Part shown: positions 1 to 23,401 of the stretch, piece by piece | Numbering within the stretch: the stretch's first letter is position 1 | Layout of the letters: each line of letters opens with the position of its first letter | From: a phage | Assembly: GCA_025325205.1 (NCBI GenBank) | Contig: GCA_025325205.1_4770.1 | Direction: 5' to 3' (one strand) | Length of the DNA: 52,259 nucleotides | Notes under the pieces: generated by a model | Told to the model about the DNA's origin: nothing | The model's input: the letters and a program-made list of their open reading frames with translations, nothing else | Databases searched by the model: none | Program-made: the position numbers and the translations under genes

Positions 1-53
1 TGAGAATAAAGACTATATTCCAATCCCAGTTCGGCGACACTTATAACCCCTTA

Positions 54-488
54 CTATGCCATGTGGATACCCGCGAGCAAGACTTCATCAGAATAAGGTT
101 GTACACCGTTCTCATGTTTAATAATCGCTTTCACGATCGCAAGCATGAGCTTATCATCGGTCAATGAAATCGGCTGTTCTGCACCAACACCACAAGCCTT
201 AGACACAGATTGAATATAGGCTTCAGTGTTATTTTCATTCGGCGGAGCCCAGCGTGAAATAATTTCCCGTACAGTGTCAATTCCCTTATTACCGACGCGC
301 TTCATCCCTTCGCGGTTGCGGTAGTTTAGTAGAATACGCGCAATGGCGCGAATACCGTATTTTACATCGATAAATTGACAGAAAGAACGGTCAGTTCGTT
401 TATCTTCTGGAACAAGACCTTTCCAGTTATCACCCCAACGAATATTTCCAGGATTGTTATTCCGGATGCCTCGTGGTTGCACAGTCAT
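54..488 (-). CDS. putative endolysin (peptidoglycan hydrolase), family not assignable by eye
   Basis: 144-aa ORF, last gene of a minus-strand block with an overlapped spanin pair directly upstream; call rests on gene context only. Confidence 0.3.
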   Translation of the reverse strand: MTVQPRGIRNNNPGNIRWGDNWKGLVPEDKRTDRSFCQFIDVKYGIRAIARILLNYRNREGMKRVGNKGIDTVREIISRWAPPNENNTEAYIQSVSKACGVGAEQPISLTDDKLMLAIVKAIIKHENGVQPYSDEVLLAGIHMA

Positions 489-579
489 AAAAAAGCTCCA
501 TTCAGTTAAACCGAATAGAGCATAGTTGAATTATCACACGCGCACAATCAATTATGTGCGATTAAGATTGAACGTTTAG

Positions 580-924
580 TTACGCAATCCGGCAAGGACT
601 TTGCAGTTTATCACCTTTCTTTATGCGGATTTCGCATTGCATCATATTGTAGTTCGCACTGCTCGCCGGCAAGACGATACTTTTCAGCCTCTTCTGCCAC
701 TTGTCTGTATTCTGTGACGCTTTCTGAATACAGCTCGGTGAGCACACGGGCGATCTGGGCGGTTGTCTTGCTGTCGGGCTGAGGGCCGGTAGCGTCACCG
801 AGGTACTTACGGATGGTTGCGATTTCGTTGTGCAACCTGTCATTAGTAGCACGATAATCATTAAGATCGGCAACCAAAGACTCAATGCGAGATTGGTACT
901 GGCGTTCGATAACGTCTTTCTCAT
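580..924 (-). CDS. o-spanin (Rz1-like outer-membrane lipoprotein) in alternate frame overlapping the i-spanin gene
   Basis: Internal ATG (reverse complement of cat at 922-924) gives MRKTLSNASTNLALSLWLPILMIIVLLMTG-C: basic n-region, hydrophobic core, lipobox-like MTGC, then Pro/Ser-rich mature part; frame differs from 611-1111 and runs past its stop. Confidence 0.45.
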   Translation of the reverse strand: MRKTLSNASTNLALSLWLPILMIIVLLMTGCTTKSQPSVSTSVTLPALSPTARQPPRSPVCSPSCIQKASQNTDKWQKRLKSIVLPASSANYNMMQCEIRIKKGDKLQSPCRIA

Positions 925-1111
925 ATGCTCTTCGTTTCTCCTCCTCGAAATCAACCGCTTTCTGAGTTTCTTTTTGGTACGACACACCGGCATCGAAACC
1001 CTCCTTTCTAGCTGTTTCTATGGCATTGTCATAAGCCCAGTTGGCTAGAATAACAATTAGGACAAGTGGTATCCAAGGTGCAACCAAACCGATTATTTTT
1101 CTAAGGAACAT
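611..1111 (-). CDS. i-spanin (Rz-like)
   Basis: 166 aa; N-terminal hydrophobic helix (IIGLVAPWIPLVLIVILANWA) followed by charged, coiled-coil-like periplasmic region; contains the o-spanin ORF in another frame. Confidence 0.5.
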   Translation of the reverse strand: MFLRKIIGLVAPWIPLVLIVILANWAYDNAIETARKEGFDAGVSYQKETQKAVDFEEEKRRAYEKDVIERQYQSRIESLVADLNDYRATNDRLHNEIATIRKYLGDATGPQPDSKTTAQIARVLTELYSESVTEYRQVAEEAEKYRLAGEQCELQYDAMRNPHKER

Positions 1112-1320
1112 ACCTTCTCACCAATTCCCATAGACAAGTATTGAATCGCAAGAAGAAATGCTATAGCTTCCTTCGTATCCCCTAAGTCTTTAAAGGCCTT
1201 GAATTTATCTTCAAGTTGCTGTACGTGCTTCTCGAATTGTGGCAAGGCCTCAATCTCAGCGGCAGCTCCGCGCATATACACTCTTGCAGCCGCTAATTGT
1301 GCGTTAGAAGGATCACTCAT
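1093..1320 (-). CDS. hypothetical protein (possible holin/antiholin-type small protein)
   Basis: 75-aa ORF directly upstream of spanins; one hydrophobic stretch (AIAFLLAIQYLSMGIG); ATGA-type overlap with upstream ORF. Confidence 0.3.
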   Translation of the reverse strand: MSDPSNAQLAAARVYMRGAAAEIEALPQFEKHVQQLEDKFKAFKDLGDTKEAIAFLLAIQYLSMGIGEKVCSLEK

Positions 1321-1532
1321 GATGTTCTCCAGATTACACTATTTCGAATTTCATCATTCCAAACGTATTTCCCCTTCTCACCATTTTTATAGGATGGAAC
1401 AGAGAAAACGGAGGAACTTGGATATAGATCTGATGTTGTTAAGCGTATACGCTTACCGTCAAAAGGTCCACCAACACAAAGGAACAGACCAGTCTTAGGT
1501 TTCTTCAAAATGGTTCCTCCTCTGTTGTACAC
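1317..1532 (-). CDS. hypothetical protein
   Basis: 71-aa ORF filling the gap between neighbouring minus-strand genes; no motif recognised. Confidence 0.25.
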   Translation of the reverse strand: MYNRGGTILKKPKTGLFLCVGGPFDGKRIRLTTSDLYPSSSVFSVPSYKNGEKGKYVWNDEIRNSVIWRTS

Positions 1533-1999
1533 TGAGCCATTTTAAGAGTATAAGCTACGTCATAGAAGTCAACACCTTGACCACAGCTATCGCAGTAGTG
1601 GCAGGCCAATCTCACAGCCTCTTCTGCGCCGCGACCTGCCGCCATTGTACCCATCAAGAACTCAAAGGCACTACCCTCGGCAATAAATTCATTAGTGTCT
1701 GGTAGACCTAATTTACCATCCCCATAGATAGGATACACGACAAGTTCCTGCGTCACTGCAATACCATAACGCGAATCCGGAATTAAATCAGAGAAAGGTT
1801 CTTTACGACCACGAACCGTAGTTTTCAGATGTTCTACAATGTCACTTACAGGACGTAGTTTACCAGACATTGCAACAAGGCACAGTCCAATCCCTGGAAT
1901 ATTGACAGTATGAACTTTATCTGTAGTTGTTGCAATATTACCCCATGTAACCTGACGATCTACTGCCAATATACCATTACGATAAGCAATTGCGGTCAT
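1505..1999 (-). CDS. putative HslV/proteasome-like Ntn-hydrolase (threonine peptidase family)
   Basis: Starts MTAIAYRNGILAVDRQVTWGN, resembling the HslV N-terminus (Met-Thr then hydrophobic strand, RNG, GDxQ/TxGN pattern) as I recall it; Gly-rich GSAFEF...AAGRGAEEA segment later. Confidence 0.35.
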   Translation of the reverse strand: MTAIAYRNGILAVDRQVTWGNIATTTDKVHTVNIPGIGLCLVAMSGKLRPVSDIVEHLKTTVRGRKEPFSDLIPDSRYGIAVTQELVVYPIYGDGKLGLPDTNEFIAEGSAFEFLMGTMAAGRGAEEAVRLACHYCDSCGQGVDFYDVAYTLKMAQCTTEEEPF

Positions 2000-2349
2000 A
2001 TTAAACGCCCATATATGTGATAAATTTTATAAGCAGTGGAAAGACCAATATTAAATTCTTTCGCTGCAACCTGAAATCTATTCTCTTTACCAGTGTAATT
2101 TCTAAGAAATTGATAAATTTCCTCTTTATCCAAGTGCCTGTTTCGCACAAGTGTAGTGGACCCAAGCCGGCGCATTTCGAGCGTAGCCGCGAATCTTCGC
2201 TTGATCTGAGCTACTGTACCAACGTACCAATACTTTGCCCCATTTTGCCCAATAGCCGCGTGGACGCATCGCGGCGTACCTGTTTTAGCGAACTTGCGCT
2301 TTGCAAATTCACACGCGAGTTCCGCATTGTCAAAACGTTGCAAGCCCAT
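1996..2349 (-). CDS. hypothetical protein (weak GIY-YIG-like signature plus C-terminal helix-turn-helix-like segment)
   Basis: 117 aa; AKYWYVGTVAQIKRR resembles the YIG..R half of GIY-YIG motifs; assignment uncertain. Confidence 0.3.
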   Translation of the reverse strand: MGLQRFDNAELACEFAKRKFAKTGTPRCVHAAIGQNGAKYWYVGTVAQIKRRFAATLEMRRLGSTTLVRNRHLDKEEIYQFLRNYTGKENRFQVAAKEFNIGLSTAYKIYHIYGRLI

Positions 2350-2352
2350 AAA

Positions 2353-2793
2353 TCACCCCGGCAATATAATTTCGTAATCAATCAGGAAAGACCGCAGAGG
2401 ATACGCCAGATCGTTACCCTCTGCAACGTGGTCATAGGAATAGTATTGTTTCCCTTGCAGACCTTTACACGGGTCGTATACCTTAACATCACCGAAGCGA
2501 GCGTCAATAATGATCTGATGGAAAAGTCCAGGTAACTGCAAAGAGGGTACAGTCGCAAGATACAAGCGCCCAGGTCGAATTTGGTGCATACCGGCAGTGA
2601 TATGCGGCTGTGCAAAGACACCGTGCTTATACAGATAGTTCGACACGTCAGTAAAACCATGAATATAATCATTTGTGAACTCGTCATATACCTGCTCAGG
2701 GTCTTTGTCAAGAAGCATAGCAAGGCAGGTAGGGATGCAAGCCATTATACTTTTCTGAGTTTTATGCTTGATTGGATCGTTGATAGTAATCAT
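2353..2793 (-). CDS. putative papain-fold cysteine peptidase (C39-like)
   Basis: 146 aa; N-terminal ACIPTCLAMLL resembles the C39 nucleophile motif (DCGxACLxMI); downstream His residues (YIHGF, YDHVAEG). Confidence 0.35.
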   Translation of the reverse strand: MITINDPIKHKTQKSIMACIPTCLAMLLDKDPEQVYDEFTNDYIHGFTDVSNYLYKHGVFAQPHITAGMHQIRPGRLYLATVPSLQLPGLFHQIIIDARFGDVKVYDPCKGLQGKQYYSYDHVAEGNDLAYPLRSFLIDYEIILPG

Positions 2794-3131
2794 TAGAACA
2801 CTTCCTTAAACAAATCAAATTTAACATGCTCGTAGATTTTATTCAGCTGAGTTAGCTTGCGAATAAATTCTTTACTGGTATTCTCGTCAATTGCACAGGT
2901 ATCCGTCTGGATCTTCCATGTATCAGAACGCAAACGTAGCAAGAATGAACCGTTCGGATAAACCGTCTTCGCTTCTGGCATATAGTGCAGAATGCAGGAT
3001 ATTGTTCCTTCAGGTGGTATAAGAACAATATAAGTATCATTCACGTCGCTGTGACTAATAATCCAACCGCTCTGTAGTAAAGTATCGCGGAGCTGGCAAT
3101 ACATTTTCGGAATAACGATATCTTTGGCCAT
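2793..3131 (-). CDS. hypothetical protein
   Basis: 112-aa ORF, start/stop overlap with neighbours (operon-like packing). Confidence 0.35.
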   Translation of the reverse strand: MAKDIVIPKMYCQLRDTLLQSGWIISHSDVNDTYIVLIPPEGTISCILHYMPEAKTVYPNGSFLLRLRSDTWKIQTDTCAIDENTSKEFIRKLTQLNKIYEHVKFDLFKEVF

Positions 3132-3496
3132 TATTGCACTTCCACAATTAACAATTCACCATGACGTTCACGAGCGAGATTATATAAATCTTGTTTCTGC
3201 TCAATACTTAATTCGCAGTCAAGAATGGCAATATCACAATGGAAGCCACTCGTACGAATAACAGTGTCTTCATACGAGTCTCTGCGATGAGCAACCAAAC
3301 GAAGGTGGAAACGATCAAACTGTACCACAGATGACTCGCGCGACAGTTGTACACACCGAACGAACTCAGGATCTTCGCGCAACACTTCTTCGAGCTTCCT
3401 GCGATATTCGTTAGCAGGACATAAAACAAAAGCTACGCGATCGTCTTTCAGCTGTGGTCGTAAGATAGACCAGGCTTTAACTATATTCTCGTTCAT
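3131..3496 (-). CDS. hypothetical protein
   Basis: 121-aa ORF, first gene of the minus-strand block, upstream of a long noncoding region. Confidence 0.4.
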   Translation of the reverse strand: MNENIVKAWSILRPQLKDDRVAFVLCPANEYRRKLEEVLREDPEFVRCVQLSRESSVVQFDRFHLRLVAHRRDSYEDTVIRTSGFHCDIAILDCELSIEQKQDLYNLARERHGELLIVEVQ

Positions 3497-3997
3497 ATAA
3501 ACCCCTTTAACGTTAACGGAATAACTATAACAGGATACGCAAGTTGATTAACATAGCCGGCCGCAACAATTAATAACCACAGTTAACTGTCTCGTGTGCT
3601 TTAAATCTTGTGCGGCAGAATCAGTTACACATACCAGAAACCGAATCTTGTAAACTCATCTCGAGTATTTACATACGGAATTAACTTTATACGAACAATA
3701 TAGGGCAGGTGAGGTGAGGATATAAAGTGTCTAGTGACGAGATAATCTACAAACGATGAATCCTTGGCAGAGATCTAAGAGCCGCCCGCGGCGTTACTAT
3801 AACGTCCCGTGATCGTCAGTGAGGTGATTGTTACGCCATGTGACTGTTACTTGTTCTATTGTTATGTTGTTTATTGTTACACGCGTTATTATTTTTTATT
3901 TGATTAGTATACTATCTATTACAGGACTATACTATAATGTCCAGTATAATTACGTCTGTTACTATCCACCTGCCCACTATGTGCTGTCTATGTATGT

Positions 3998-4066
3998 GCT
4001 ACCTGGTATTTCCTGCGCGTGCTGTTACCTGGTATTTTCAGCACACTCGCGCTACCTGGTATTTCC
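3998..4066. repeat. three direct repeats of G(C/T)TACCTGGTATTT(C/T)C with 26-27 bp period
   Basis: Copies at 3998-4013, 4024-4039, 4051-4066 read directly from sequence; lies in the divergent intergenic region between minus-strand and plus-strand gene blocks. Confidence 0.8.
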
Positions 4067-4150
4067 GGCACACCGTCTACCGTATAGTCCCGGATGTTAT
4101 TATTATTATGAAACACAACTAAAAAAGTTCTAAAATAATGCAGATAATAG

Positions 4151-4179
4151 TTGCATCTGATACCCTGTTGTCATACTAT
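4151..4179 (+). promoter_or_regulatory. candidate sigma70 promoter (TTGCAT-N17-TACTAT)
   Basis: -35 TTGCAT 4151-4156, 17-nt spacer, -10 TACTAT 4174-4179, about 75 nt upstream of the first plus-strand early gene with AAGGGAG RBS. Confidence 0.4.
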
Positions 4180-4254
4180 AACTGCGTAGGGTAAAGGGGG
4201 TTTTAAAGCGGGACACGGGTTCCGCGCCCGCCTCACCCGAAGGGAGATTGCATT

Positions 4255-4560
4255 ATGTCCATTATCTACTTACCGCGTTCTATGTCCCAGTCACAGATCA
4301 CCAAACGTATTATCGGCAAGCGCCTGCACCAACTGGGCCTTACTGCGGAAAAGGTTGACGGGGATTGGGGTTTCGACGAGTATCTGGTAATGCTCCCGGG
4401 CAACGAAAAGTATTCCAGCACCGCGTTATATATTCGCATTAACGAGGACGGCACTGTCAGCTCTTATAGCGTAATGTACGGTCGACCAGTATGCCAAGCG
4501 AATAGCCTTTGGTCTGTGTTCTGCTTTATTACAATGATAGCTAAAGCTATCCAACAATAA
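4255..4560 (+). CDS. hypothetical early protein (paralog family with 6177-6434)
   Basis: 101 aa; N-terminal SQSQITKRIIGKR shared with ORF 6177-6434 (SMITRRIIGKR); good RBS. Confidence 0.45.
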   Translation: MSIIYLPRSMSQSQITKRIIGKRLHQLGLTAEKVDGDWGFDEYLVMLPGNEKYSSTALYIRINEDGTVSSYSVMYGRPVCQANSLWSVFCFITMIAKAIQQ

Positions 4561-4636
4561 TAGCGTGCTAATGGTTGCCCATTGTTACAGTGGGCTCCCA
4601 CTAGCAATCCGCTAGAACAACATGGAGATATTCACA

Positions 4637-5116
4637 ATGGTTACTATCACCCGCGTAGCAAAAGACGCTCGCTTCTTTGCCACTATGTCTAACGCTCGCC
4701 GTGCCTTAAAAAAGGTTCTGGATGTGGACACTGCGACAGCTAACAGCTTTATTCACCAGGAACCGCACGAGGACGGTGGTCGCTACTGGTACAGCGAAAG
4801 CGCGGTTAATAAGGCAGCTAGCGATCTGGTTGAAGCTGATAAAGCGACTGTCGTGGAAGTGACCACACAACCAGCTCCAACCGATCCCGCTAAAAGCAAA
4901 ACACGCAGCGAAACGCGCAACGGGGTCCGCCGCCCAATTAAAGGTAAATGCGCAGACGTTTGGAACGCTCTGGATAATATGTTGCCTAATGGTGTGCCAA
5001 CTATTGGTAACGTCCGTGACCTTGCGAAAGCTAATGGTTGGAATATTAATAATGCAACGATTGAATTCTACGCATGGCGTAAATTCCACGGGCTCAATAA
5101 TAAAGGGGGCAACTAA
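4637..5116 (+). CDS. hypothetical protein
   Basis: ORF 4622-5116; start chosen at ATG 4637 preceded by GGAG (4624-4627); no motif recognised. Confidence 0.4.
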   Translation: MVTITRVAKDARFFATMSNARRALKKVLDVDTATANSFIHQEPHEDGGRYWYSESAVNKAASDLVEADKATVVEVTTQPAPTDPAKSKTRSETRNGVRRPIKGKCADVWNALDNMLPNGVPTIGNVRDLAKANGWNINNATIEFYAWRKFHGLNNKGGN

Positions 5117-18714: not shown

Positions 18715-19461
18715 ATGCAATTTACAACTACCGCGCAGGCAGTTTTAGACACTGGTGTCAAGATGCTTGTGTATGGTGAATCCGGTATGGGTAAGACCAT
18801 GCTCACAGCAACCCTTCCAAGACCGTTGCTGATTTCTGCAGAGTCCGGGCTTTTGTCTTTAACACCGAATAACATTGCTCGTGTATTTGGTGAAAACAGA
18901 CCAGATATCTGCTACGATATTCCAACCATCACGGTTGAAAATATCCAGGATGTAGAGCAGGCTTATGTTTGGGCGACTAACCCTGCAAACAATCCTGTAG
19001 GTGAAGATGGTTTACCGCGCTTTCAGTCTCTTGCGCTGGATTCACTTACTGAGATTGCTGAAAAGTGCCTTAACAATGCGAAGCGTACTGTGAAAGATCC
19101 GCGTCAGGCTTATGGGGATCTTATTGAGAAGATGCAAACTTTAGTTCGCGCTTTTCGAGATATCCCTGGACTTAACGTGTACATGGCAGCTAAAATGTCC
19201 CGTAACAAGGACGAGTTGACAGGTATTACGTCTTACGGTCCTTCTATGCCTGGTGCAAAATTAGGTCCAGAATTACCATACTTTTTTGACGAAGTGTTCA
19301 AAATTAGTGTTGGTAAAGACCAAAATACTCAAGCAGATTTTCGTTATCTGCTGACCAGACCAGATCTGTCAAATGTATGTAAAGATCGTTCTGGTTCGTT
19401 AGAACAGATGGAATATCCACATCTTGGTGCAATCATTAACAAAATCAAAGGGGTGCAATAA
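18715..19461 (+). CDS. RecA-core ATPase (Sak4-like recombination protein candidate)
   Basis: Walker A VYGESGMGKT, Walker B-like LALDSL; about 250 aa; adjacent SSB-like gene. Confidence 0.5.
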   Translation: MQFTTTAQAVLDTGVKMLVYGESGMGKTMLTATLPRPLLISAESGLLSLTPNNIARVFGENRPDICYDIPTITVENIQDVEQAYVWATNPANNPVGEDGLPRFQSLALDSLTEIAEKCLNNAKRTVKDPRQAYGDLIEKMQTLVRAFRDIPGLNVYMAAKMSRNKDELTGITSYGPSMPGAKLGPELPYFFDEVFKISVGKDQNTQADFRYLLTRPDLSNVCKDRSGSLEQMEYPHLGAIINKIKGVQ

Positions 19462-20384
19462 TGGCCGGTTTAGGAATGCAATTTAACGCTGGACAACACG
19501 CAGAGCGTCAACACAATAGCTTGATGCCCGCTGGTTGGTATGTTGTTCAGATTGTAAACTCTGAAATCAAACCGACTAAAACTCCAGGCGGTGCGCGTCT
19601 GAATCTTCAGTTTAAGATTATGCAGGGTGATTTTGCTGGTCGTGTAATGTTTGGCGGTTACAACGTCAAGAACGCGAACCCTGTCGCTGTACAGATTGCA
19701 ATGGAAGAACTGGCAGAGCTGTCCCGTGCTGTTAAAGTTCCAGTTTGGAACGATACCGAACAACTGCACGGTATTCCGTTCAACCTGAAAGTGAAAGTTC
19801 GTCAGCAACCTGGCTATGAGCCAAACAACGAACCTCAGATTTATCAAGCAATTGATAATATGGAAGGTGTTGTATACGCAACTAAGGCGGACATGGCTAA
19901 CCTGCCTAAATCAACTCCGGCAGCGGCAGCACAGTCTCCAGCATTTGGTGGCGGTGCGTTCGGTGGTACTCAGCAGCCACAGCAGCAGCAACCGCAGCAG
20001 GGTTTCCCTGGTGCATTTGGGCAGCAGCCGCAGCAACAGCAGCAGCAACCTCAGACTCAGGGGTTCCAGCAGCAGCAGCAACAGCAACAACAGCCGCAGC
20101 AGCCGGTACAGCAGCAGCAACCGCAGCAGTCTGGAACAGTTGATTTTAACAGTGCGGCACAATCTCAACCGTGGGCTAATGGTGCGCAGCAGCAGACTCA
20201 GCAGCAACCTAACTGGGCAACTCAGCAGGTACAGCCTGGAGCAGAGCAACCACAAACTCAAGCTCAGAATACTGGTACTGCTAACCATGCAGAACCTGAA
20301 GTCCAGGATGATATCGCTAAAGCAGCTCAGACCAAGACTCCACCGTGGAAACGTTCCACTGAAGGCGATGACGCTGCACAGTAA
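19461..20384 (+). CDS. putative ssDNA-binding protein with Gln/Pro-rich low-complexity linker
   Basis: Globular N-terminal part then QQPQQQQ... tract and acidic C-terminus; position next to Sak4-like ATPase; no OB-fold motif verified. Confidence 0.35.
   Translation: MAGLGMQFNAGQHAERQHNSLMPAGWYVVQIVNSEIKPTKTPGGARLNLQFKIMQGDFAGRVMFGGYNVKNANPVAVQIAMEELAELSRAVKVPVWNDTEQLHGIPFNLKVKVRQQPGYEPNNEPQIYQAIDNMEGVVYATKADMANLPKSTPAAAAQSPAFGGGAFGGTQQPQQQQPQQGFPGAFGQQPQQQQQQPQTQGFQQQQQQQQQPQQPVQQQQPQQSGTVDFNSAAQSQPWANGAQQQTQQQPNWATQQVQPGAEQPQTQAQNTGTANHAEPEVQDDIAKAAQTKTPPWKRSTEGDDAAQ
19971..20130 (+). repeat. CAG/CAA-rich (poly-Gln/Pro) coding microsatellite
   Basis: Runs of cagcagcagcaaccgcagcag read from sequence inside ORF 19461-20384. 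Confidence 0.8.
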
Positions 20385-21397: not shown

Positions 21398-23401
21398 ATG
21401 TTCAAACTACGTGATTATCAGCAAGAAGCTGTAAACAGTACATTGCGCTATTTCATCAAGTATGGTGAAAAGTCAGGAAATCCTGTTATCTTGTTGCCTA
21501 CAGGGACTGGTAAGTCCCTTGTAATTGCTGGTCTATTAAAGACAATTCACGATAATTGGGGTAGTACCCGCATGATGGTAATTACTCACGTAAAAGAATT
21601 GATAGACCAGAACCACGATAAATTTAAGAAGTTGTGGCCTGAAGCACCGACTGGTATTTATAGTGCTGGTATGGGTCGCAAGGATAAGAATGCAATGATA
21701 ACGTTCGCAGGTATTCAGTCTGTTGCAAAACAAGCTAAATACTTCGAGGACGTTGATATTATTATAGTTGACGAATGTGACCTTATTAGCCCAAATCAGC
21801 AAACAAGTTATCAGAAGTTCTTTGCGCACATTCGTGAAAAGAACCCATATCTAAAGATTATCGGTCTTACTGCTACGAGTTGGCGTCTTGGTTTTGGTTC
21901 TATTATCAAAGATGATTATGCGCCTAACGCTTTATTTGATGAAATCGTATTTAACGCATGTACCGTAGAGTGCTTCAACTGGTTCATTGATGAAGGTTAT
22001 CTTGTTCCGTTAGTACCACGTAAAACAAAGAAAGAGTATGATGTAAGTGGTGTTCATACTCGAGGCGGTGAGTTCATTGAAAGTGAGCTTCAAAAGGTTG
22101 TAAACGATCCTGATGTAACTCGCCATTTATTAGATGATGCGATTAGTATTGCGGAAGAAGAGAATAGAATGAGTTGGCTTGTCTTTTGTGCTGGTGTAGA
22201 CCATGCAAAAGATGTCAAAGACTACCTCAACGAGCGCGGTATTAGTTGTGAAGTTGTAACTGGTGATACACCGAAAGCCTTGCGTGACCAGTATCTTATT
22301 GATTTTAAAGCTGGTCGTTTACAGGCAATAGCAAACAACAACGTATTGACGACAGGCTTTGACCATCCGGGTCTTGACTTGATAATTGGTATGCGCCCGT
22401 CCCAATCTTCCCGCCTATGGGTTCAGATGCTTGGACGTGGTACTCGACCTGATTATGCAGATGGTTTTGATTTGACCACAACGGAAGGTCGTTTGCAAGC
22501 TATCTCCGCTTCGCATAAACAGAACTGTCTTGTACTAGACTATGCAGGTAATACAAGACGTCTTGGACCTATTAACGACCCTGTAATTCCTAAGCGTCCA
22601 GGGCAGAAAGGAAAGTCCGCTGCACCTGTTAAAGAATGCCCGGTATGTAAAACCTGGAACCATGCGTCGGTTCGCTATTGTGGTGGGTTAAAACCATTCG
22701 ATACAAGCGGTATGTCCCATGAAGAAATACTCTATCTTCAAGGGTTAGGATATACCATTACAAATAATAAAGCGTGTCGTGCTGGTTATTGCGGTCATGA
22801 GTTTACTTTTGAGAAGAAACTGATGGCGAGTGCTAGTACGAAGGCTATTATCAAGAATGATTTGCCAGTCACTGAAGTGTTGAAAGTTGATATGGTGAGT
22901 TACTATCGTCACGAGAACAGGGGTGACCGTTCTAAGCCACCAACACTTCGTGTAGATTATCTTTGTGGGTCACAAACTATTCAACAATATATTTGTCTGT
23001 TTCATACTGGCTTTGCAGGCAAGAAAGCGCGTAACTGGTGGCGCGAGCATTGCAGCTTGGCAATCCCAGCCAACATTGACGAAGCCCTCAATGTGGTCAG
23101 CCAGCTCCGTGTACCGACGCACATTTATGTCAACTTGAAGGGTAAGTTCCCTGAAGTGTTGAATAGTTGTTATGACGGTAGTGAGTTCGGTAAGAAAGAA
23201 GCAACCAACGAACGTCCGGTTGTACAAATCGCAGCAATGAATGGCTTGTCCCAGTTTGGTGGAAGTTATACGAATAAGTTTGATGAAGACGAGCAGACTG
23301 ATTCTCGTACGACAGTATTGCATTCTACGTCTAATCAACCTATTCTTACTGGTAACGGTAAAGAACTACCACCAGATTTTGATGACGACATTCCATTTTG
23401 A
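21398..23401 (+). CDS. SF2 DNA helicase with zinc-finger and SSB-like acidic C-terminal tip
   Basis: Walker A LLPTGTGKS, Walker B IIVDECD, TATSWR, QMLGRGTR; CPVCKTWNHASVRYC; last residues PPDFDDDIPF. Confidence 0.75.
   Translation: MFKLRDYQQEAVNSTLRYFIKYGEKSGNPVILLPTGTGKSLVIAGLLKTIHDNWGSTRMMVITHVKELIDQNHDKFKKLWPEAPTGIYSAGMGRKDKNAMITFAGIQSVAKQAKYFEDVDIIIVDECDLISPNQQTSYQKFFAHIREKNPYLKIIGLTATSWRLGFGSIIKDDYAPNALFDEIVFNACTVECFNWFIDEGYLVPLVPRKTKKEYDVSGVHTRGGEFIESELQKVVNDPDVTRHLLDDAISIAEEENRMSWLVFCAGVDHAKDVKDYLNERGISCEVVTGDTPKALRDQYLIDFKAGRLQAIANNNVLTTGFDHPGLDLIIGMRPSQSSRLWVQMLGRGTRPDYADGFDLTTTEGRLQAISASHKQNCLVLDYAGNTRRLGPINDPVIPKRPGQKGKSAAPVKECPVCKTWNHASVRYCGGLKPFDTSGMSHEEILYLQGLGYTITNNKACRAGYCGHEFTFEKKLMASASTKAIIKNDLPVTEVLKVDMVSYYRHENRGDRSKPPTLRVDYLCGSQTIQQYICLFHTGFAGKKARNWWREHCSLAIPANIDEALNVVSQLRVPTHIYVNLKGKFPEVLNSCYDGSEFGKKEATNERPVVQIAAMNGLSQFGGSYTNKFDEDEQTDSRTTVLHSTSNQPILTGNGKELPPDFDDDIPF

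Follow-up and report, generated by a model that had tools for sequence, protein, structure and literature searches.

Two putative peptidases, one HslV-like and one C39-like, encoded beside the lysis genes of a Nonagvirus genome

We analyzed two peptidase-like genes in a 52,259-nucleotide stretch of phage DNA (contig GCA_025325205.1_4770.1 of assembly GCA_025325205.1; hereafter, the window), which is a Nonagvirus genome (Queuovirinae, phage 9g-like coliphage). Bases 1-4000 share 92-95% identity with 18 Nonagvirus/phage records, including vB_EcoM_PD328, BRET, SE1, JenK1 and 9g; the genome as a whole has about 94% identity to known phages, and at the protein level both peptidase genes are about 90-100% identical to deposited phage genes, some of them already annotated. 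The original prediction, made from the DNA letters alone, had singled out two open reading frames (ORFs) beside the lysis cassette as encoding an HslV-like N-terminal nucleophile (Ntn) hydrolase and a C39-like cysteine peptidase, and had given no strand for either. Both ORFs are present, on the minus strand, and the spanin and endolysin genes lie immediately downstream on the same strand (Table 1).

Table 1. Positions of the two putative peptidase genes, their predicted active-site codons and other features of the window
Feature	Position	Strand	Basis or remark
Predicted compact HslV/proteasome-beta-type N-terminal-threonine peptidase, 164 aa	1505..1999	-	phrog_1040; AlphaFold/Foldseek; conserved residues; hhalign to HslV
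Predicted active-site codons of the HslV-like protein	Thr2 1994-1996; Asp14 1958-1960; Lys28 1916-1918; Gly46 1862-1864; Gly109-Ser110 1670-1675	-	
C-terminal tip Glu-Glu-Glu-Pro-Phe of the HslV-like protein	1508..1522	-	end reads ...TTEEEPF
Cysteine set of the HslV-like protein (Cys40; LAC-x-YC-x-SCG)	1880-1882; 1583-1603	-	Cys40, Cys133, Cys136, Cys139
Predicted stand-alone C39-like papain-fold cysteine peptidase, 146 aa	2353..2793	-	fold; invariant catalytic residues
Predicted catalytic codons of the cysteine peptidase	Gln13 2755-2757; Cys19 2737-2739; His92 2518-2520; Asp107 2473-2475	-	
Divergent non-coding region, ~750 bp	3497-4254		upstream of the leftward block
Three 21-nt direct repeats	4000-4073	+	TACCTGGTATTTyCnGCACAC; spacing 26-27 nt
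First gene of the leftward operon, 121 aa	3131..3496	-	phrog_17838; weak sigma-factor-like similarity only
Upstream neighbour, 112 aa	2793..3131	-	phrog_21152; stop overlaps Cys-peptidase start (TAATG)
Variable intervening gene, 117 aa	1996..2349	-	phrog_17085; weak helix-turn-helix similarity; stop overlaps HslV-like start (ATGA)
Small downstream gene, conserved	1317..1532	-	phrog_12090; 3' of the HslV-like gene
Small gene, 75 aa	1093..1320	-	phrog_19774; directly before the spanins
i-spanin	611-1111	-	DUF2514; phrog_312
o-spanin reading frame, embedded	580-993	-	lipobox LLMTGC in the sequence; spanin annotation in FritzHoffmann
Terminator-like hairpin and T-run	495-521	-	between the spanin genes and the endolysin start
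Endolysin	54-488	-	phrog_873, E 1.7e-63; same annotation in relatives
SSB-like protein	19461-20384		phrog_6015
DNA helicase, 667 aa	21398-23401	+	phrog_16; C-terminus at ~23375-23398
Gly-rich ORF in the tail-fibre region, 235 aa	35443-36150	-	

The HslV-like protein starts with MTAIAYRNGILAVDRQVTWGN (MTAIAYRNG). Its ATG at 1997-1999 is preceded by an in-frame stop with no other possible start between the two, indicating that Met-Thr, as originally read, is the true N-terminus. Among the PHROG profiles, the protein matches phrog_1040, labelled 'peptidase HslV family', over residues 1-163 (E 1e-33). In an alignment of 21 homologues, M1, T2, D14, K28, G46, G109 and S110 were invariant or nearly so, and the same columns were kept both after the addition of relatives of 27-35% identity (from Seuratvirus and Klebsiella, Enterobacter, Providencia, Edwardsiella and Aeromonas phages) and in a second collection, made up of 37 distant members of the family. 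Thr2, whose conservation the original prediction had proposed as a check, was invariant in all alignments, as were D14, G46 and G109, with K28 and S110 invariant or nearly so. These positions have counterparts in HslV: D14 corresponds to HslV D17, K28 to K33, G46 to the glycine of FAGG, and G109-S110 in the phage motif AEGS to those in IGSG. Alignment by hhalign to the Escherichia coli HslV sequence covered the full length with E 0.0018 and a probability of 15%, which is weak alone, and a profile of the family searched against the PDB reached proteasome beta and HslV entries at E 0.02-0.2.

The AlphaFold model of the HslV-like protein has a predicted local distance difference test (pLDDT) score of 90.5 and a predicted template modelling (pTM) score of 0.86. 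It shows the proteasome-type alpha-beta-beta-alpha sandwich, with one helix layer reduced. Foldseek found 202 PDB matches at E<=1e-3, the best being BPH (5ovt and 5ovs, E 1.4e-6), and all 50 matches listed belong to the proteasome family: BPH, HslV, archaeal and yeast 20S beta subunits, and Anbu, with template modelling (TM) scores of about 0.6 and 13-20% identity. Taken together, the profile match, the conserved residues and the model support the HslV-like assignment, and the protein is predicted to be an Ntn hydrolase of the proteasome-beta/HslV type that retains the full set of active-site residues. A further set of cysteines (Cys40, Cys133, Cys136 and Cys139) is kept in the Queuovirinae subfamily, is absent from the wider family, and could form a metal site or a disulfide.

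Of the known systems, HslV (ClpQ; MEROPS T1, PF00227) shares with the phage protein its fold, a Met-Thr start without propeptide, and equivalents of Thr1, Asp17, Lys33, Gly45/47 and the GSG serine. There is also a phage cysteine near the position of HslV Cys159; Cys139 falls at the Ser169 position of 20S beta subunits, near Cys159. By contrast, the phage protein has 164 residues as against about 175 and falls short of HslV and 20S beta subunits by some 10-30 residues; in the model, the segment aligned with HslV residues ~50-95 is a helix (48-58) followed by a loop with an invariant RYG (in SRYG); a further helix (148-160) and a tail are added at the C-terminus; identity is only 13-20%; and no HslU is annotated in the phage genome. 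The HslV equivalogs of NCBIfam (TIGR03692 and NF003964) did not match the window protein, and its homologues scored about 30 bits against cut-offs of 137-158. Because these cut-offs are missed by about 100 bits, the protein is not an HslV orthologue. BPH (~185 residues) and Anbu (~235 residues), bacterial relatives of proteasome beta for which no ATPase partner is known, resemble it in that BPH is the best Foldseek match and the phage gene is stand-alone, with no dedicated unfoldase, whereas both are larger, cellular, and ring- or helix-forming, and the phage protein is smaller and phage-borne. The protein is a direct member of PHROG 1040, whose other members include proteins from Seuratvirus, PEi21, Aeromonas, Klebsiella and Erwinia jumbo phages and from prophages; the profile has 277 positions, and a C-terminal extension of about 110-140 residues seen in larger phages is missing here.

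The cysteine peptidase carries MACIPTCLAMLL at residues 17-28, the C39-like nucleophile region of the original prediction, with Cys19 as the putative nucleophile. It matches phrog_4049, a family of unknown function, over residues 7-144 (E 3.9e-54). In 15 sequences, down to about 26% identity, Q13, C19, C23, M26, S84, L85, H92, D107, P108 and Y118 were invariant, so that the proposed Cys/His pair (C19/H92) is conserved throughout. Gln stands six residues before Cys, and His and then Asp-Pro follow; papain/C39 enzymes show the same order, with Gln at the oxyanion hole, Cys as nucleophile, and then His and Asp. Its model has a pLDDT of 93.3, and the Foldseek matches are all papain-like (YopQ, AvrPphB, Josephin-2, PCAT1, staphopain and LahT150). 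In the structure table for this model, the values are 10.2 for PCAT1 (C39 domain), 9.8 for PeiR (pseudomurein endoisopeptidase), 9.7 for the ComA peptidase domain, 9.4 each for LahT150 and the PCAT1 peptidase domain (nuclear magnetic resonance structure), 8.7 for a Bacillus anthracis C39-like protein, and 6.3 for AvrRpt2, the label used in one GenBank record. On the strength of its model, the protein is a papain-fold peptidase whose nearest solved structures are C39 domains, in line with the C39-like call. The structure searches thus did not assign the two proteins to confident non-peptidase folds.

Sequence profiles link the cysteine peptidase to C39 faintly. Three of its 15 relatives weakly match PF03412, at best with E 0.004 and under the 22-bit cut-off, and this is the sole Pfam family matched more than once among them; its own profile gave only a weak PeiR match in the PDB and no C39 match. 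Compared with the C39 leader peptidase domains of PCAT1, ComA and LahT, the phage enzyme is unfused to an ABC transporter, predicted to be cytoplasmic and below the PF03412 threshold, and the window scan found no double-glycine leader substrate gene nearby. No ABC transporter is annotated in the genomes of relatives either. Other close systems are the effector proteases AvrRpt2 (C70) and AvrPphB/YopT (C58), Josephin, and UfSP-type deconjugating enzymes. Loose double-glycine patterns were matched in a helix of GTP cyclohydrolase I, in a Gly-rich tail-region protein and in spurious ORFs, all of which we rejected as implausible. The same loose scan brought up a 235-residue ORF in the tail-fibre region whose N-terminal half is extremely Gly-rich (MSDMTLIPSGLGGGFGGEAGAAAVGGGIGGLIGSWIGNGWGGGGGWGGWGG).

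For both proteins, searches of the PDB with the single sequence returned nothing relevant, and a PADLOC scan gave no match.

The original prediction had regarded a proteasome-type peptidase as unusual phage cargo, a view that does not hold. A profile search of 1.84 billion cluster representatives (clusters at 50% identity) yielded 3,689 proteins at E<=1e-3, 341 of them at E<=1e-10. Most of 173 family sequences are 140-165 residues long, and 155 start with Met-Thr. By tblastn, the HslV-like protein was found in 82 phage records covering Queuovirinae, Craquatrovirus, Yokohamavirus, Plateaulakevirus, Stephanstirmvirinae and Erwinia jumbo phages. A bacterial genome scan gave 38 loci, mostly in Alphaproteobacteria, and those neighbourhoods that we annotated are prophages, where genes for integrase, terminase, portal, tail proteins and exonuclease lie close by. 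Public records already label the gene and its relatives 'peptidase HslV family', 'proteasome subunit alpha type-2', 'putative protease' or 'protease', and a jumbo-phage genome paper reports two HslV genes unaccompanied by HslU. In the papers on 9g and EC151, proteases go unmentioned.

Several family members differ in architecture. In larger phages (Aeromonas 4L372XY, 3432-4828; Klebsiella KP13-16, 4001-4915), the HslV-family proteins carry the C-terminal extension mentioned above, with a weak Rho_N-like match. In Aeromonas phages, the HslV-family paralogues gp205 and gp206 are encoded side by side, which brings a two-subunit arrangement to mind. In the 9g record (KJ419279, 4008-4525, minus strand), the HslV-like gene is broken into two ORFs that overlap, of which only a 252-nt coding sequence is annotated.

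The cysteine peptidase family was found in 176 phage records (Queuovirinae including Vibrio phages, Kuttervirus, Samunavirus, 40-kb Vibrio phages and others) and in 45 clusters of a large protein database, where the long contigs are phage-sized; as far as seen, it is phage-restricted. The gene is publicly annotated as 'papain-like cysteine protease'.

We then compared the arrangement of the two genes. In 20 of 20 related loci, the cysteine peptidase gene lies on the same strand and at most about 1.1 kb upstream of the HslV-like gene. These loci (L001-L006, L014-L024 and L068-L070) represent an enterobacterial Queuovirinae-like lineage, including relatives of 26-55% protein identity and the Providencia phage PSTCR4. 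In K4PH164, EC151, PSTCR4 and L068, nothing stands between the pair and the genes abut or overlap. The 117-residue intervening gene is restricted to Nonagvirus, and Seurat (Seuratvirus) has an unrelated 61-residue gene in its place. The 112-residue upstream gene and the small downstream gene are fairly conserved too, homologues of the former in the divergent relatives L022-L024, L069 and L070 being 43-61% identical. Near the prophage and large-phage copies of the HslV-like gene, no cysteine peptidase was found, and the pairing fails outside the lineage. Since each gene occurs alone elsewhere, the conserved pairing may reflect shared ancestry rather than joint function. It is a stable feature of one lineage, compatible with joint function and no proof of it. 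The same holds for the suggestion in the original prediction that the two enzymes might together process a host or phage target late in infection.

The minus-strand block to which the pair belongs is tightly packed. Transcription would pass from the 121-residue gene through the 112-residue gene, the cysteine peptidase gene, the intervening gene and the HslV-like gene to two small ORFs, which separate the HslV-like gene from the spanins, and then to the spanin genes and the endolysin gene; the first four junctions are, in order, TAATG, TAATG, a 3-nt gap and ATGA. In relatives, the leftward strand runs on into holin (just past the window start), TerS, TerL and portal genes. Given the divergent non-coding region upstream of the block, the peptidase genes lie near the start of a long leftward unit with lysis and packaging genes downstream. 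The gene after the HslV-like one (phrog_12090) probably starts at a TTG overlapping the HslV-like stop, giving a product of about 63 residues.

Other features of this neighbourhood were also recorded. The three direct repeats in the divergent region could be operator or iteron sites. The 121-residue gene weakly matches the C-terminal part of a sigma factor (NF009192, E 0.033), and the 9g record labels its homologue 'potential sigma factor'. The terminator-like hairpin falls within the lysis cassette.

The C-terminal tip of the HslV-like protein has counterparts in relatives of 30-55% identity, which end in GDIPF, GDIPW, EGIPF, GGIPF, DEDSPF, PEIPF, KAPF, EGTPW, DDIPY or DDPPY, behind linkers that otherwise differ. 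A PF or PW ending is found in 16 of the 173 family sequences, mostly the closest relatives; the phage-derived proteins of K4PH164 and EC151 end in PY, and the tip is absent in Seuratvirus and one further clade. In the window, the Glu codons GAGGAGGAA lie just upstream of the TTG that overlaps the HslV-like stop, and in Nonagvirus they may serve as the Shine-Dalgarno/ribosome-binding site of the next gene. The Pro-aromatic end is retained in other lineages despite different junction sequences; a nucleotide constraint may act on the acidic part. The tip resembles the C-terminal tip of single-stranded DNA-binding protein (SSB) and may be a docking motif of the SSB type, a new detail that we treat as a lead only.

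Among the ORFs of the window of at least 60 residues, only one other, the DNA helicase, has a comparable tip. The helicase ends in ...LPPDFDDDIPF, its tip being identical to that of E. coli SSB (...PPMDFDDDIPF), and a PDB search with the helicase tail matched only SSB C-termini, including that of E. coli SSB. No such tip is present in the SSB-like protein that the phage itself encodes. These observations suggest SSB mimicry by the helicase, through which it would recruit SSB-binding proteins or compete for them.

Our preferred explanation, which we hold to be reasonably probable from sequence and models, is that both proteins are small, stand-alone and probably catalytically active, and act as accessory cytoplasmic peptidases on host or phage proteins and are not lysis enzymes; host takeover, counter-defence and protein processing are the roles that we judge to fit them. 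Threonine after Met is a permissive residue for Met removal, and host methionine aminopeptidase would remove Met1 and expose the threonine as N-terminal nucleophile, as in HslV, with no propeptide involved. The exposed Thr1 would work with Lys28, Asp14, Gly46 and Ser110 and is predicted to hydrolyze peptide bonds. The annotation of JenK1 over its first 50 kb lists no HslU-like or AAA+ gene, and neither do those of the remaining region in ESCO3, FritzHoffmann and 9g or of the neighbourhoods examined; since no HslU-type partner is annotated, the enzyme may self-assemble or act alone, much as BPH, Anbu or the monomeric archaeal Connectase do, or may work with a host factor. The C39-like enzyme would use Gln13 (oxyanion hole), Cys19, His92 and Asp107 to make site-specific cuts, plausibly after small residues of the Gly-Gly type. 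Neither protein matched a signal-peptide or wall-binding domain family, and for this reason we place both in the cytoplasm.

Several observations weigh against this explanation. The HslV-like window protein has no PF00227 match at E<=1 and reaches no Pfam or NCBIfam threshold. Its link to Pfam is transitive, and on this side the evidence speaks for the family assignment: the distant homologue gp206 of Aeromonas scores 25 bits with PF00227 (cut-off 22.4), E<=0.01 is reached by 17 of 37 members of the wider family, and the best NCBIfam match of distant homologues is HslV (E 1e-7). The cysteine peptidase has no Pfam, NCBIfam or PDB sequence match, its Foldseek E-values are marginal (4e-3 and worse), and a scan of the window with a strict double-glycine leader pattern found none. 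The split gene in 9g suggests either that the HslV-like gene is dispensable, through a real frameshift, or a sequencing error. The two genes also occur apart: the cysteine peptidase without the HslV-like gene in Kuttervirus (between topoisomerase II subunits), Samunavirus and Vibrio phages, and the HslV-like gene without the cysteine peptidase in PEi21, Aeromonas phages, KP13-16 and prophages. Vibrio phage CHI (Queuovirinae) has no HslV-like gene in the 53.5 kb searched of its 57.8 kb. Finally, our literature search found no functional study of phage HslV-like peptidases, only mentions in genome announcements.

The absence of an annotated HslU-type gene from the phage genome would also fit an HslV-like protein that works through host HslU, either as a hybrid ATP-dependent protease with new specificity or by titrating HslU and so shutting down HslUV. 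HslV is the best cellular family of the distant homologues, the Met-Thr start without propeptide is HslV-like, and the enterobacterial hosts possess HslU. However, the phage protein is no more like HslV than like BPH, Anbu or archaeal beta subunits, and the equivalog cut-offs are missed widely. Moreover, the segment aligned with HslV residues ~50-95, which corresponds to the two-helix layer facing HslU in HslV, lacks about 15 residues in the model and contains a single helix. We therefore regard dependence on HslU as unlikely, although it is the alternative that fares best.

A bolder extension of the accessory-peptidase explanation, to which we give somewhat less credence still, is that the pair forms a proteolysis module for host takeover or counter-defence, combining a peptidase that mimics the SSB tip with a Gly-Gly-specific C39-like enzyme. 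The tip (DIPF, DIPY, IPW or EEPF, depending on lineage) could dock on the SSB-tip-binding pockets of host replication and repair enzymes or of the phage replisome, and the docked proteins could be degraded or trimmed without an unfoldase. The C39-like enzyme could process or deconjugate proteins, for instance against ubiquitin-like conjugation defences.

The proximity to the lysis cassette would be explained if one or both proteins were lysis accessories that cut cell-wall peptides, like pseudomurein endoisopeptidases or the CHAP/NlpC domains of endolysins. Yet the canonical lysis set is complete, with the endolysin and spanins in the window and the holin beyond its start in relatives; homologues of the cysteine peptidase lie far from lysis genes, as in Kuttervirus; and no signal-type or cell-wall-binding region was matched in either protein. 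The CxxxCLxM, HxxxxD and DPxxG motifs are typical of C39, and we know of no cell-wall hydrolase with the N-terminal-Thr proteasome-type fold. A lysis function thus seems improbable to us.

Equally improbable is that the HslV-like protein, perhaps with the cysteine peptidase, is a virion-maturation protease for head or tail proteins. The head module of JenK1 (NC_029021, 1-5910) contains TerS, TerL, portal, scaffold and major capsid protein genes with no prohead protease annotated, in a Phyllobacterium prophage the homologue is flanked by the genes for the large terminase and the portal, and in Queuovirinae and PSTCR4 only a few genes separate the HslV-like gene from the terminase genes downstream. 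On the other hand, many siphoviruses have no prohead protease, the gene was not found in the searched part of CHI and is split in 9g, its context elsewhere varies (next to exonuclease, PhoH or tail genes), and to our knowledge no prohead protease has this fold. JenK1 also carries a separate 92-residue gene (46426-46704) labelled 'protease'.

That the motifs match by chance and the ORFs are not peptidase genes, as the missing Pfam and NCBIfam matches and the 15% hhalign probability might suggest, is effectively refuted by the PHROG matches (E 1e-33 and 4e-54), the high-confidence models with family-specific structural matches, and catalytic residues that do not vary even between very distant homologues.

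Phage protein catalogues already include both families, and the window adds a member to each. Compact proteasome/HslV-type peptidases form a very large phage and prophage family for which we found no published function or biochemistry, and a C39-like peptidase with no transporter or obvious leader-peptide substrate is likewise unexplained. E. coli K-12 supports the growth of the BASEL coliphages Bas19-Bas25, which belong to the same subfamily, and this makes the gene pair tractable. The pair thus offers a place to ask what the self-contained proteases of phages do, whether they degrade host factors, counter defence or process phage proteins, and this question is of more interest for the family as a whole than for the single window described here.

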